Shown here: in pieces, positions 56,346 to 62,078 of the stretch
Numbering within the stretch: position 1 is the first letter of the stretch
How the letters are laid out: each line of letters starts with the position of its first letter
Assembly: GCA_964291295.2 (NCBI GenBank)
Contig: OZ219754.1
Location: 544,001-608,000, forward strand
DNA from: an uncultured Candidatus Binatia bacterium
GTDB taxonomy: Bacteria > Desulfobacterota > Binatia > UBA9968 > JAJDTQ01
DNA length: 64,000 nucleotides
Reading direction: 5' to 3'
Translations under genes and position numbers: made by a program
Notes under the pieces: model-generated
Databases searched by the model: none
Told to the model about the DNA's origin: nothing
Seen by the model: only the letters and a program-made list of their open reading frames with translations

Positions 56346-59255
56346 TCAATCATCCTTGATGAGGCCGAGTTCGCGAAGGGGCTCGAGCACGCCGTTCTCC
56401 AACTTGGCCTTGTCGTATCCTTCCGGGGCGGTTGCCGATGCGTTGATGGAAATGGTGCCTGTCATCTCTGCGAGATTGGCCAATGCGTTCCATGCGTCGT
56501 ATACCACGTTCCGGTCAGCCACGAAGGAGACCGTGATCTCACGGCTGCCGGTGGGGTAGTCCCCGCCCGATCCTCCTTCGGGAGAAGAGCCCTCGCCGGA
56601 ATCGCCGCTCTCACCATGTTGCCCGGTGCCCTCTCCTTTTCCCTCTCCTTCTCCGGTGCCGCCGGTCGTCTCGTTGTCGGGTGCCGGCGCCTGTTCGGGA
56701 ATAGCCGCGGGGGCAATCAGAAAGCCAGCGTCCAGGTCGATTTCGTCGTCCGCCACACTGCGGTCGAATGCGACACGGTTCCGGTCAATGAGGTAGCGCC
56801 CGTCGTCTCCGAGTTGCGGCCGGCCGGTGGCGTAGCCGAACAGACGGCTCTCCACTCCACGAGCGACCGCCTTGCGCACGGCGTCGGACGAGAGCAGACG
56901 GGGGAAGCCCAGGAACTCGTAGAACCCTTTCAACACTTGGGCCGTGGTGATTCCGGCAACGTAGCGTCCCGGTTCTCCGAGCCTGAACAGTTCGGCGATC
57001 TTGCCGGGAGCGAGCGTTACGAATACCCGCTTCTGGACCTTGGTGAGCAGCTCCATCAGGCGCTGCTGGATGAGGGCGCATTTCTTGTCGTCAAGGGTCG
57101 TCTGGAGCGGGCGGCCGCCGATGCGGACGGTGTCCAGCGTCAAACCTCCGTTGCCGGATACCGGGAGCCGGACTTCGCCGTAGAGCTTGAGCAGGGCCGA
57201 CTCGGTTGCCGTCTTCTCGGTGGCGAGGCGCTCCCGAAGCTGGTTTCGCTGCGCATCCGTGAGATTGTGCTCGCGCCACTTGCCCTGTATTCGCTCGACC
57301 GCCAGGAGGTAGCGAACGCCGCGGCGCAGAATCTCCACCTGATCGGCTGATGGGACGGCCAGCCCCAGGCCGTTGCGGAACTCGCGCTGGCGGTTCCCGT
57401 ACTGCTCGCAAATCGCCAGCGCGGTGCGATTCTGCGTCGCGGGCGCTTGCGTCGCGAACTCAAGCGGCAGGTACGCCAGGAGAAACTGCGGTTCCCGGTC
57501 CGGCACGTCGCCCGGTTTGGCGGGCCAGACGATGGCGGGCTGTCCGGCCAGCCGCTCCTCGATCATCTGCCGGACACGAGCCATGATGTTGCCGTCGTCG
57601 CGCCCGACCGTTTCGGCCTCCTGCTCGACCAGCAGCGTGACATTGGGATCCTTCTTGAAGCAGTAGCGCACGCCGTCGAAGTGCAGATAGACGCACTGCT
57701 CCCTGAGTTCCTTGAGGCACGCCTGAATGGTGGTGGTATCAAGGTCCGGCCCGATGCACGCCGCCAGCAGGTCGGGCTCGCCGATCCCCGGTGGAAGGAG
57801 TTCACCCGGGTCGCCCTCCCCACGCCGCAGACCACCGAACGAGTAGAGCAGCATCGCGGTGGCAAGGCGCATGGCCGGTTGCTTGCCGGACTCCGTCGTC
57901 ACTTCGTGCGCGCGCCGTTCGTCGATGCGGCGAGCCCGTGCGTTTGCGCCCGTGAAGTCCTGCTCCAGGCAGGCCTGGAAGTCCTCGCGCTGGCCGACCT
58001 CCTTGAAGAAAGCGAGGCGGACGGCATCATCATGGATGGGAACGTCGCCCGGACCGAGCAGCGGTCGGGAACCGCCTGCCCGGTGGGCGGCGCGCAGGCA
58101 CGAAGCAAGGAAGCGCAGTGCCCCGCGGGTGCGCTGGAATTCGGGGATGGCGGCCCAGCGCTCGCGCATCAGATCGATCAACGCCGGATGGAAGGGGTAG
58201 GACGCCCTGATTCGCCTGCGCAGGGCCTGTCCATCTTCTTCGGCCTGCCGCCGCTCTCCCTGGCCGTGTGCGCTGGCGCGGCGCATCTTCGTGAACACCT
58301 GTACATGGGCATCCACCGTCGCTGCGGCCGCACCCGCGTCGGGCGTGCCGGCGAGCAGCCGGCGCTGGATCACGTTCAGTATCTCGTTGCCCTCGACCGG
58401 CTCCCGGCGCTGGCCCTTGCGTGAGGCAAGGTGCTCGACGGTTTGCAGCAGGCCCGTGTATTCAAGGGATTCGCGTTTGCTGGACTGAAGGGAAAAGACG
58501 AGCGCCGCGTTGTCCACGCTCCCCACCGCCACCGTCAACCGCTGAAGGAACGACAGCGTCTCGTCCCGGAGGGTGGTCTGTTCGATGCGGATTCCGCCGG
58601 CGCTGATGAGGTATTGCAGCAGTTCGTCGAGCAGGATCAGACTCGGTCCGCCCTTGAGCAGTTCGACGAGCGCATCGCCGCCCGGTGCGACCCGGGCTTC
58701 GTCCTGTGCGCGCACCAGGTCGTAGCCGTCCCGCCCTCCGAGGGACCATGCGACCCAGCCCCAGATCGTTCTTGCGGAGATGTCCCCGGCCGGGGACTGC
58801 TTGCCATTTGTCGGATCGAAGAACTGCCCGTCCACCACGGCCACCCGTACCCCTCCAGGCCGCGGCAGGCCGGCCGCCTCCGGCAGCGCTTCAAGCGCGG
58901 CGCGCGACCGGGCAGCGTACAGCAGGGCGGCAAGGGTGTGGGACTTGCCGCCGCCGAAGGGTGTCTGAAGCCTGAGAACCCGATTCCCTTCGGCTCCGGC
59001 AAGGCGGCCAAGCACATCTTCGAGAAGAGACTTGAGGCCGCTCGTCAGGTATGACGCGGCAAAGAAACTGTCGGCATCCCGGTAGACCGGGGGGACTCGC
59101 CTCAATTCGGCTTCCGGCCGTCCGAGATCCCTGGCGATCAGGTAGTCGGACAGGGGACCCAGGTCCAGTGCGAAGATGTCTTCGGAGAAGTCGTCGGCAA
59201 GCACGTCGGGATGCAGGGCAACGCACTGTAGCCAGGGGCGGCAATCGGGCTTCAT
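56346..59255 (-). CDS. DUF499-family AAA+ ATPase
   Basis: PW...LHPDV...FALDL, LQTPFGGGKSH, ILLDELLQY, SYPFHPALI, FQRTRGALR; ATGA overlap with the methyltransferase stop. Confidence 0.9.
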   Translation of the reverse strand: MKPDCRPWLQCVALHPDVLADDFSEDIFALDLGPLSDYLIARDLGRPEAELRRVPPVYRDADSFFAASYLTSGLKSLLEDVLGRLAGAEGNRVLRLQTPFGGGKSHTLAALLYAARSRAALEALPEAAGLPRPGGVRVAVVDGQFFDPTNGKQSPAGDISARTIWGWVAWSLGGRDGYDLVRAQDEARVAPGGDALVELLKGGPSLILLDELLQYLISAGGIRIEQTTLRDETLSFLQRLTVAVGSVDNAALVFSLQSSKRESLEYTGLLQTVEHLASRKGQRREPVEGNEILNVIQRRLLAGTPDAGAAAATVDAHVQVFTKMRRASAHGQGERRQAEEDGQALRRRIRASYPFHPALIDLMRERWAAIPEFQRTRGALRFLASCLRAAHRAGGSRPLLGPGDVPIHDDAVRLAFFKEVGQREDFQACLEQDFTGANARARRIDERRAHEVTTESGKQPAMRLATAMLLYSFGGLRRGEGDPGELLPPGIGEPDLLAACIGPDLDTTTIQACLKELREQCVYLHFDGVRYCFKKDPNVTLLVEQEAETVGRDDGNIMARVRQMIEERLAGQPAIVWPAKPGDVPDREPQFLLAYLPLEFATQAPATQNRTALAICEQYGNRQREFRNGLGLAVPSADQVEILRRGVRYLLAVERIQGKWREHNLTDAQRNQLRERLATEKTATESALLKLYGEVRLPVSGNGGLTLDTVRIGGRPLQTTLDDKKCALIQQRLMELLTKVQKRVFVTLAPGKIAELFRLGEPGRYVAGITTAQVLKGFYEFLGFPRLLSSDAVRKAVARGVESRLFGYATGRPQLGDDGRYLIDRNRVAFDRSVADDEIDLDAGFLIAPAAIPEQAPAPDNETTGGTGEGEGKGEGTGQHGESGDSGEGSSPEGGSGGDYPTGSREITVSFVADRNVVYDAWNALANLAEMTGTISINASATAPEGYDKAKLENGVLEPLRELGLIKDD

Positions 59256-62078: not shown

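Follow-up and report, generated by a model that had tools for sequence, protein, structure and literature searches.

A poly-C tract in the Hma methyltransferase gene hmaB of an uncultured Binatia bacterium as a candidate phase-variation switch

We analyzed a stretch of 64,000 nucleotides (hereafter the window) from contig OZ219754.1 of the uncultured Candidatus Binatia bacterium assembly GCA_964291295.2, in which a run of 27 cytosines splits a methyltransferase gene on the minus strand. By its sequence, the split gene is hmaB, encoding the DUF1156 N6-adenine DNA methyltransferase of an operon for Hma, a type-1 system related to bacteriophage exclusion (BREX). The poly-C tract breaks the reading frame as assembled, and a change in its length by one or two nucleotides would decide whether hmaB is read to its end or terminated within a few codons. 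We read the tract as a slipped-strand contingency switch, by which subpopulations of cells would stochastically lose and regain the Hma methyltransferase, and we hold this reading with slightly better than even confidence. The coordinates of all features are collected in Table 1.

The onset of the tract is at codon 57 of the gene, where an ATC codon takes up the first C. The start codon of hmaB is a GTG at 62078-62076, with a GGGAG located 6 nt upstream and a GTGA overlap with the stop codon of the preceding gene, gajB. From this GTG, the assembled open reading frame (ORF) runs through 56 codons and then the ATC, and it reads ...AAIYAALIPPPPPPPPPKNRAT up to its stop codon. Past codon 57, the frame imposed by C27 reads ...AALIPPPPPPPPPKNRAT and ends at a premature TGA. 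If one C of the tract is instead taken into the next codon, translation continues as RKIGQRDTAKSF... and remains open for 876 codons to the TGA at the end of the gene. This productive frame of the body starts with RKIGQRDTAK and holds the sequences VLDLFAGGG and ITDPPYY. The frame is open for tract lengths of 3k+2 (23, 26 and 29), so that C26 would give a product of 57 + 8 + 876 = 941 amino acids. Lengths of 3k (24, 27 and 30) lead to a stop six codons on (PKNRAT), and lengths of 3k+1 (25 and 28) to a stop two codons on (EK). The initial annotation had proposed that a C27 run about 57 codons into the gene breaks the frame, and that any length of 3k+2 restores it to yield, for C26, a protein of 941 residues with DLFAGGG and DPPY. 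Both statements were borne out by translation, with the stop placed six codons past the tract.

The tract stands out from the base composition of the window. Only three homopolymers of at least 8 nt are present in the 64 kb, namely C8 at position 5356, G19 at 42116 and G27 at 61882. In 30 simulations with a first-order Markov model, there was no G/C run of at least 12 nt. The same model predicted 63, 18.7 and 5.7 G/C runs of 6, 7 and 8 nt, respectively, as compared to 22, 2 and 1 observed; over the window as a whole, runs of these lengths are depleted two- to nine-fold relative to expectation. The distribution of G/C run lengths is bimodal, with short runs, none at 9-18 nt, and then the two runs of 19 and 27 nt. 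Thus, the comparison with the Markov model indicates that the tract is not a chance feature.

Apart from the tract, hmaB appears undamaged, as had been suggested in the initial annotation. Homologues of 931-937 amino acids covered 99-100% of the 876-residue body at 75-80% identity, and this coverage by full-length homologues argues that there is no further lesion in the gene. Likewise, the productive frame of the body contains a single stop codon, the terminal one, as compared to 20 and 12 stop codons in the other two frames.

The site of the tract was compared with the corresponding site in homologues. A search with the hmaB body identified 5111 homologues among 8000 scored candidates. The two pieces of the gene in the window abut on the homologue alignment with 0 residues missing, so that ALI-Pn-RKIGQRDTAKSF (where Pn is the proline run) stands against ALAPAP-RDEKERESAASF. 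In the alignment of the N-terminal regions, ...AAIYAAL-I-Pn lies over ...AAIYAAL-A-PAP, and RKIGQRDTAKSFLAKLASY lies over RDEKERESAASFVARLASY. The abutting alignment suggests that the tract replaces a conserved Pro-Ala-Pro and adds 4-6 residues. At the DNA level, the site is C-rich in all of 14 related loci, a set that does not include the source genome, as exemplified by GTC CCC GCC CCG in L004 and GCG CCC GCC CCG in L006. With Pro-Ala-Pro codons this rich in C, replacing one G by C would suffice for an uninterrupted stretch of 8-9 C, which could be expanded by slippage. The tract therefore looks like an expansion of a C-rich Pro-Ala-Pro seed.

In an AlphaFold2 model of the homologue P0005, the Pro-Ala-Pro (residues 57-59) is located in a non-helical segment (residues 56-61) between helices at residues 45-55 and 62-75. 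The confidence of the model, expressed as the predicted local distance difference test (pLDDT), was 69 on average with a block mean of 58 at the site, and it was below 50 for residues 1-48. Because of this low confidence at the site, its assignment to an insertion-tolerant loop is weak. A search of solved structures with P0005 gave no matches. In the related loci and the protein database, we also observed that hmaB consists of three overlapping ORFs in L012 (7755-10442), that the N-terminal motif of hmaB is 2.8 kb away from the C-terminal match in L014 (5205-9392), and that many short N-terminal hmaB ORFs are frameshifted at positions other than the tract site.

A second genome appears to carry the tract. 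The closest database relative of the hmaB body, P0006, is 82% identical and consists of 835 amino acids without the N-terminal domain; it begins at the same internal MLDLFAGGG that gene callers picked for the gene in the window. A search with the 71-amino-acid 5' ORF identified 26 short N-terminal ORFs, of which only the ORF in the window and P0123 contain the tract. P0123 is 98 amino acids long and 77% identical to the 5' ORF. At the same site it has 8 consecutive prolines, after which comes an out-of-frame tail; it reads ...AIFATLTPPPPPPPPQVTV... and ...AIFATLTPPPPPPPPQVTVLTREG... around the tract. P0006 and P0123 are presumed to be adjacent, each being located on a contig of 3,097,171 bp. 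The poly-proline of P0123 at the same site thus points to a second, diverged genome with the tract, in which hmaB is also split as assembled. The initial annotation had proposed to look for a poly-proline or poly-C insertion after the ARRP motif in DUF1156 homologues; one independent genome (P0123/P0006) showed it, but the others did not.

In a quick phylogeny of 33 HmaB proteins (LG+G4 model), the path between the protein in the window and P0006 corresponds to 0.35 changes per site. The two group weakly with P0036 and P0112, at a support of 84 in the Shimodaira-Hasegawa-like approximate likelihood ratio test (SH-aLRT). P0036 has the normal Pro-Ala-Pro, and P0112, the sister of P0006, is N-truncated. 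A single origin of the tract is possible.

The second genome also bears on whether the tract is real. Both tracts of the window are G on the plus strand, and poly-G is a known artefact of two-colour sequencing chemistry, such that a read artefact or gap filling could in principle have produced a run that does not exist in the cell. We regard this as very improbable, since both flanks continue the same gene with a codon-level match to the homologues and no missing residue, the window contains zero N, an independent assembly has the same poly-proline at the same site, and the tract lies on a naturally C-rich seed.

The properties of hmaB correspond to those of simple-sequence-repeat contingency loci, in that the tract is inside the ORF and changes in its length toggle between a complete ORF and an early stop, with no other lesion. 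G/C tracts of about 8 nt or more are hypermutable. Under the switch reading, the seed, which is predicted to lie in a loop joining two helices of the N-terminal domain, would have expanded to about 27 C. A run of 27 identical bases is far beyond the length at which slippage is frequent, and the population would be expected to contain mixed lengths, one of which is displayed by the assembly. Cells with 3k+2 nucleotides would produce full-length HmaB with a loop of 7-9 prolines, and the other two classes would terminate after 2 or 6 codons. The assembled length would represent the OFF class. Poly-C is a preferred substrate of Rho. In the OFF state, about 2.6 kb of untranslated hmaB RNA would follow just 3' of the poly-C, to which Rho could bind, and hmaC expression may then drop by transcriptional polarity. 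Polyproline stalls ribosomes and requires elongation factor P (EF-P), and in the ON state translation would depend on this factor, so that ON may mean low expression. The nine CCC/CCG codons could also be prone to +1 slippage and the OFF state may thus be leaky, CCC-C being a classic +1 slippery site for tRNA-Pro (PMC7577736, PMC4519876).

Taken further, the same properties allow for a different function of the tract. If RNA polymerase slipped on the G27 template, or ribosomes slipped by +1 on the repeated CCC-C, some full-length HmaB could be made from any tract length, and the tract would then be an attenuator and not a binary switch. This would fit with the slippery codons being nine in a row, with polyproline stalling and its need for EF-P, and with the fact that exactly a +1 shift is needed to reach the productive frame from C27. 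On the other hand, the same tract would vary at the DNA level anyway, and no stimulatory element was seen, although no search was aimed at one. We consider recoding as the main function to be quite improbable. For the slipped-strand switch, we infer slippage, reversibility, polarity and an effect on defence or the methylome from the arrangement of the sequence; the further suggestion that hmaB controls a phasevarion is pure conjecture.

Several observations weigh against a switch at hmaB. None of the 14 related loci contains a homopolymer of at least 8 nt. Among 205 proteins with the ARRP motif, a run of at least 8 prolines is present in 2, a run of four in one (P0195, PPPP) and runs of at most two in the other 202. 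The absence of the tract from 14 of 14 loci and 202 of 205 proteins means that it is not a feature of the family. No proline run at the site was found in the best 120 full-length matches, only P0195 (PPPP) was found among the 120 longer matches listed, and the best 150 of 1543 cluster representatives yielded no further case of the tract. An in-frame poly-proline allele, as expected for the ON state, was identified in 0 of the 205 ARRP proteins and in none of the best 150 of the 1543 representatives. In both of the tract-bearing genomes (2 of 2), hmaB is out of frame as assembled, which together with the lack of an ON allele gives the appearance of a decaying gene; the chance of two out of two being out of frame is 4 in 9, however, so this count in itself says little. 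Split hmaB genes without the tract are common in public assemblies and make up 24 of the 25 remaining short N-terminal ORFs. Calling the gene OFF relies on the precise consensus length of a 27-nt homopolymer, a length that cannot be trusted from the assembly alone, and a single tract length is known for each tract-bearing genome. An enzyme with a loop of 8-9 prolines would be only putatively active.

The polarity part and the effect on defence are also affected by such observations. The initial annotation had described the DUF499 gene, hmaC, as coupled to the stop codon of hmaB, and it is indeed intact, with its ATG overlapping the hmaB TGA (ATGA). It also carries a GGAGG of its own 9 nt upstream, which had not been taken into account, and hmaC could therefore be expressed without translational coupling. 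According to the published account of Hma in Halomonas, HmaA alone protected E. coli against T4, overexpression of HmaB had no measurable effect on T4 infectivity, and hmaB is present in only 85.3% of Hma-like loci (PMC11232893). Based on these three results, switching of hmaB may not switch defence.

Much of this evidence would also be expected if hmaB were simply decaying. A chance seed of C8-9 would have run away by slippage and inactivated the gene, leaving a young pseudogene in a defence island with a fast turnover. Besides the two out-of-frame genomes and the missing ON allele, such a process is in line with the frequent splitting of hmaB for other reasons in public assemblies, such as in L012, with the mosaic nature of the island, in which one ATPase gene has a GC content of 50%, and with the 14.7% of Hma-like loci that are without hmaB (PMC11232893). 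It accords less well with the 876 codons lacking a second lesion, where the other frames contain 12-20 stops, with the full-length hmaC and gajB genes, and with both OFF frames ending within 2-6 codons. In addition, a tract of similar length is found at the same site in a relative 0.35 changes per site away, and an unbroken run of 24-27 nt is not expected to survive such divergence neutrally. We judge non-adaptive decay to be unlikely, though by no means negligible.

The uncertainty in tract length opens for yet another explanation. The consensus length of homopolymers this long is error-prone on every sequencing platform. The true mode could be in frame, at 26 or 29 nt, in which case hmaB would simply be ON with a tolerated polyproline loop, and the OFF state would be a consensus error. 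Several of the related loci are chromosome-scale contigs of metagenome-assembled genomes (MAGs), several relatives have scattered frameshifts, and the window itself belongs to a contig of 3.65 Mb. However, 28 of the 32 scanned ORFs in the window matched a Pfam family with essentially full-length domains, suggesting that the assembly is not generally rich in indels. Moreover, a tract of about 27 nt would be hypermutable regardless, such that a miscalled length changes the state of the feature and not its nature. We find it distinctly unlikely that the true modal length is in frame.

In favour of the contingency switch, a second poly-C tract is present in the window outside of the Hma locus. This C19 tract belongs to the 5' end of an ORF of 1955 amino acids (36345-42209) with fn3 domains, or else is located shortly upstream of that ORF. 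As assembled, C19 is in frame with an upstream ATG at 42176 and reads ...GVRLPPPPPPRKPAVG..., followed by a signal peptide; alternatively, translation starts from a GTG at 42089, with C19 lying 26 nt upstream of it. The sequence makes this gene a candidate for a phase-variable surface protein. The occurrence of C19 beside C27 suggests that such tracts recur in this genome. The sequence GAAAA follows both tracts on the gene strand (61877-61881 and 42111-42115) and is translated as Pn-R-K in the productive frame. At 66% GC, such an A-rich 5-mer is uncommon, and a rough hand estimate for a shared flanking 5-mer, based on two cases, is about 0.004. The tract of P0123 is not followed by GAAAA.

A more elaborate version of the switch reading combines these elements. 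The tract would be a maintained switch at the same loop site of hmaB in two diverged genomes, and one of a set of unusually long poly-C tracts of 19-27 nt that serve defence and surface-protein genes. HmaB would be needed for both restriction and modification, similar to PglX of BREX or Mod of Type III systems, making the OFF state safe, and would in this way offer a first clue from genetics to how Hma systems work. The C27 RNA could in addition load Rho and, through EF-P-dependent polyproline, slow translation, such that hmaC expression would be tied to the state of the tract. We put this forward tentatively, and as a whole we think it rather unlikely. More generally, the length of the tract, its presence in a diverged relative and the second tract of C19 make hmaB a reasonable candidate for follow-up studies.

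Table 1. Poly-C tracts, hmaB segments and genes of the Hma island in the 64-kb window
Feature	Position	Strand	Description and evidence
Poly-C tract, C27 on gene strand (G27 on plus strand)	61882..61908	-	Proline codons whichever frame; sequence and run count
Premature TGA in assembled C27 frame	61863..61865	-	Six codons 3' of the tract; translation
hmaB 5' segment, DUF1156 N-terminal domain	61909..62078	-	Codons 1-56 and first two bases of codon 57; Pfam DUF1156, E 2e-13; PADLOC HmaB, 8e-13
hmaB body, productive 3k+2 frame	59252..61882	-	876 codons; motif I DLFAGGG, motif IV DPPY; TGA at 59252-59254; N6_N4_Mtase, 2.8e-6; PADLOC HmaB, 1.8e-87
hmaC (DUF499 ATPase), 969 amino acids, intact	56346..59255	-	Pfam DUF499, 7.5e-31; PADLOC HmaC, 7.1e-94
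gajB (Gabija UvrD-type helicase)	62075..63991	-	Directly upstream of hmaB, stop overlaps hmaB start; UvrD-helicase, 1.5e-58; GajB PDLC00114, 1.9e-213
ABC-type ATPase (AAA_15/AAA_21, PtuA-like), 635 amino acids	54406..56313	-	Last gene of the island; Pfam; PADLOC PtuA, 4.7e-32
Second poly-C tract, C19 on gene strand (G19 on plus strand)	42116..42134	-	At 5' end of the FN3-repeat secreted-protein ORF, or shortly upstream; outside the Hma locus

The operon is visible in the order gajB-hmaB-hmaC-ATPase. Judging from the gene order of relatives, the window holds the 3' two-thirds of a composite operon, and hmaA and gajA are expected past the end of the window (position 64000, at the start of gajB). 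In Gabija, the UvrD-type helicase GajB is paired with GajA, an ABC ATPase of the OLD type with a TOPRIM domain. Residues 1-969 of hmaC aligned end to end with four relatives at 71-77% identity. A PADLOC scan of the six ORFs at 52.8-64 kb gave no match to PglZ, the alkaline-phosphatase-family protein of BREX, and its secondary matches to PglX (3.2e-11) and BrxC (2.7e-5) were weak; we class the locus as BREX-related and not as BREX. Neither long inverted nor long direct repeats of the kind associated with shufflon-type switching were found at 54-64 kb. No sigma-70-like site that could serve as an internal hmaC promoter was detected between gajB and hmaC (1 site in 10 kb, as compared to 1.8 expected). 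The count of terminator-like elements was not significant (14 versus 8.3 +/- 3.4 in shuffled sequences). One terminator-like hairpin with a T-rich tail is located at 62146-62168 on the minus strand, inside the 3' end of gajB and about 70 nt before the start of hmaB, and may be due to chance.

For the relatives, a PADLOC scan covered 24 ORFs in six of the 14 related loci. Here, the genes repeatedly follow one another as hmaA, an optional gajA-gajB pair, hmaB, hmaC and variable defence genes. HmaA of the Hma system is a Swi2/Snf2 helicase with a PD-(D/E)XK nuclease at its C-terminus. In these loci, hmaA encodes a Snf2 helicase of about 1200 amino acids (PDLC00659, E about 1e-183), identified in all four of the ORFs of this size that were scanned (L006, L007, L009 and L013). 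It is located upstream of gajA-gajB or, as in L007, immediately 5' of hmaB. In L004, L006, L009 and L013, which are phylogenetically scattered MAGs, the gajA-gajB pair comes immediately before hmaB, and gajB ends at the hmaB start. A long prokaryotic Argonaute (pAgo) gene is inserted between hmaB and hmaC in L004, and the genes located 3' of hmaC are IetA/IetS in L009, PDC-S19 in L006 and OLD-like ATPases in L001, L007 and L013. Hma was defined by PADLOC (Payne 2021) and has been described as a hotspot for embedded defence genes (bioRxiv 10.1101/2024.01.29.577857; PMC11232893), a view with which the embedded genes in the relatives agree. The system was later reclassified as a type-1 DUF499-centred BREX-related system, in which the methyltransferase is of the N6 type resembling that of type-3 BREX, with a helical DUF1156 in front; the methyltransferases of Hma and other BREX-related systems, like the DUF499 ATPase, have an evolutionary link to BREX (PMC12839542).

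The ATPase gene at the end of the island differs from its surroundings. Its region has a GC content of 0.50-0.57 as compared to 0.65-0.68 in the flanks, with about 50% for the gene itself against a background of about 66%, and its similarity to the ATPases found 3' of hmaC in the relatives is weak. No partner gene is apparent, and a Rieske oxygenase gene (52788-54098) marks the end of the island. This ATPase is probably a recently and separately acquired single-gene defence candidate.

Elsewhere in the window, an ORF for an IS630-type DDE_3 transposase (11413-12408) and an ORF for an AbiEi antitoxin-like protein on the minus strand (13000-13614) are located among short broken ORFs, and the region 11413-13614 is probably the one to which the initial annotation referred as damaged fossils. 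A helicase-nuclease pair resembling AddB/AddA is present at the left end (1-5903), and a gene for a GmrSD-family type IV restriction enzyme of 872 amino acids at 21719-24334. These suggest that there are more DNA-defence functions in the window, outside of the Hma island.

An hmaB tract that naturally turned the gene on and off, and that two diverged genomes have in common, would provide a ready genetic handle on the mechanism of Hma. It has been proposed that the methyltransferase shields self DNA from the HmaA nuclease (PMC12839542), and PglX is needed for restriction in BREX (PMC12707154). If self-protection were the sole role of HmaB, the OFF state would be self-toxic; a tolerated switch in hmaB would therefore argue that HmaB is also needed for restriction. 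If OFF cells are viable with an intact hmaA, HmaB must belong to the restriction complex, and the tract would be the first genetic clue to the logic of Hma, a system recorded in 2446 taxa (PMC12839542). [quoted passage not shown] For annotation purposes, an hmaB gene that is split at this site should not be filed as dead.

Among known systems, the loci in the window can be compared with the poly-G/C contingency loci of Bordetella, Campylobacter, Neisseria and Mycobacterium (PMC1891110, PMC8355987, PMC5084427, PMC10334774). They share the location of poly-G/C tracts within genes or promoters of surface-protein and restriction-modification genes, as illustrated here also by C19 at the FN3-protein gene. 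Known G/C contingency tracts are mostly 7-17 nt long. In contrast, the tracts described here are 19 and 27 nt, with none at 9-18 nt in the window.

Type III mod, Type I hsdM/hsdS and Type IIG genes are all established cases of switching by repeats (PMC5909438, PMC7383803, PMC4889913). Similar to the mod and hsd genes of phasevarions, hmaB has a repeat in a methyltransferase ORF that gives ON and OFF frames, and the methyltransferase is the specificity component, such that the OFF state need not be self-toxic. Phasevarion systems differ in that they occur in host-adapted pathogens, have shorter tracts or tetra- and pentanucleotide repeats, and control demonstrated regulons. Compared to published Hma loci, the hmaB and hmaC genes match the PADLOC models and the gene order is the same, with the Gabija pair before hmaB as in related loci, but the window ends in gajB and so leaves hmaA out of view.

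In agreement with the initial annotation, which knew of no repeat switching in DUF1156/DUF499 systems, we found no report of it for Hma or DUF1156 in a literature search of freely accessible main texts, and the main texts of PMC12839542, PMC11232893 and bioRxiv 10.1101/2024.01.29.577857 mention neither phase variation nor homopolymers. Nevertheless, the initial annotation missed a precedent in pglX, which makes the tract less novel than it held. In the Pgl system of Streptomyces coelicolor (BREX type 2), phase variation at 1e-2 to 1e-4 has been ascribed to pglX and the G tract within it (Sumby & Smith 2003, cited by PMC4365076; also PMC6326788). HmaB with its DUF1156 domain is not PglX, no PglZ was seen among the six ORFs scanned at 52.8-64 kb, the hmaB tract is in the N-terminal domain, and switching was measured in Pgl whereas it is inferred for hmaB. 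At 27 nt, the hmaB tract is presumably also longer than that of pglX. Both systems nevertheless have a G:C homopolymer inside the coding sequence of an N6-adenine methyltransferase, in a defence system of the BREX superfamily and in a high-GC bacterium, where frame changes switch the system or would do so. Thus, by analogy, the pglX G tract may be regarded as the closest counterpart of the hmaB tract, which is probably a familiar kind of switch in a defence family for which it has had no earlier report.

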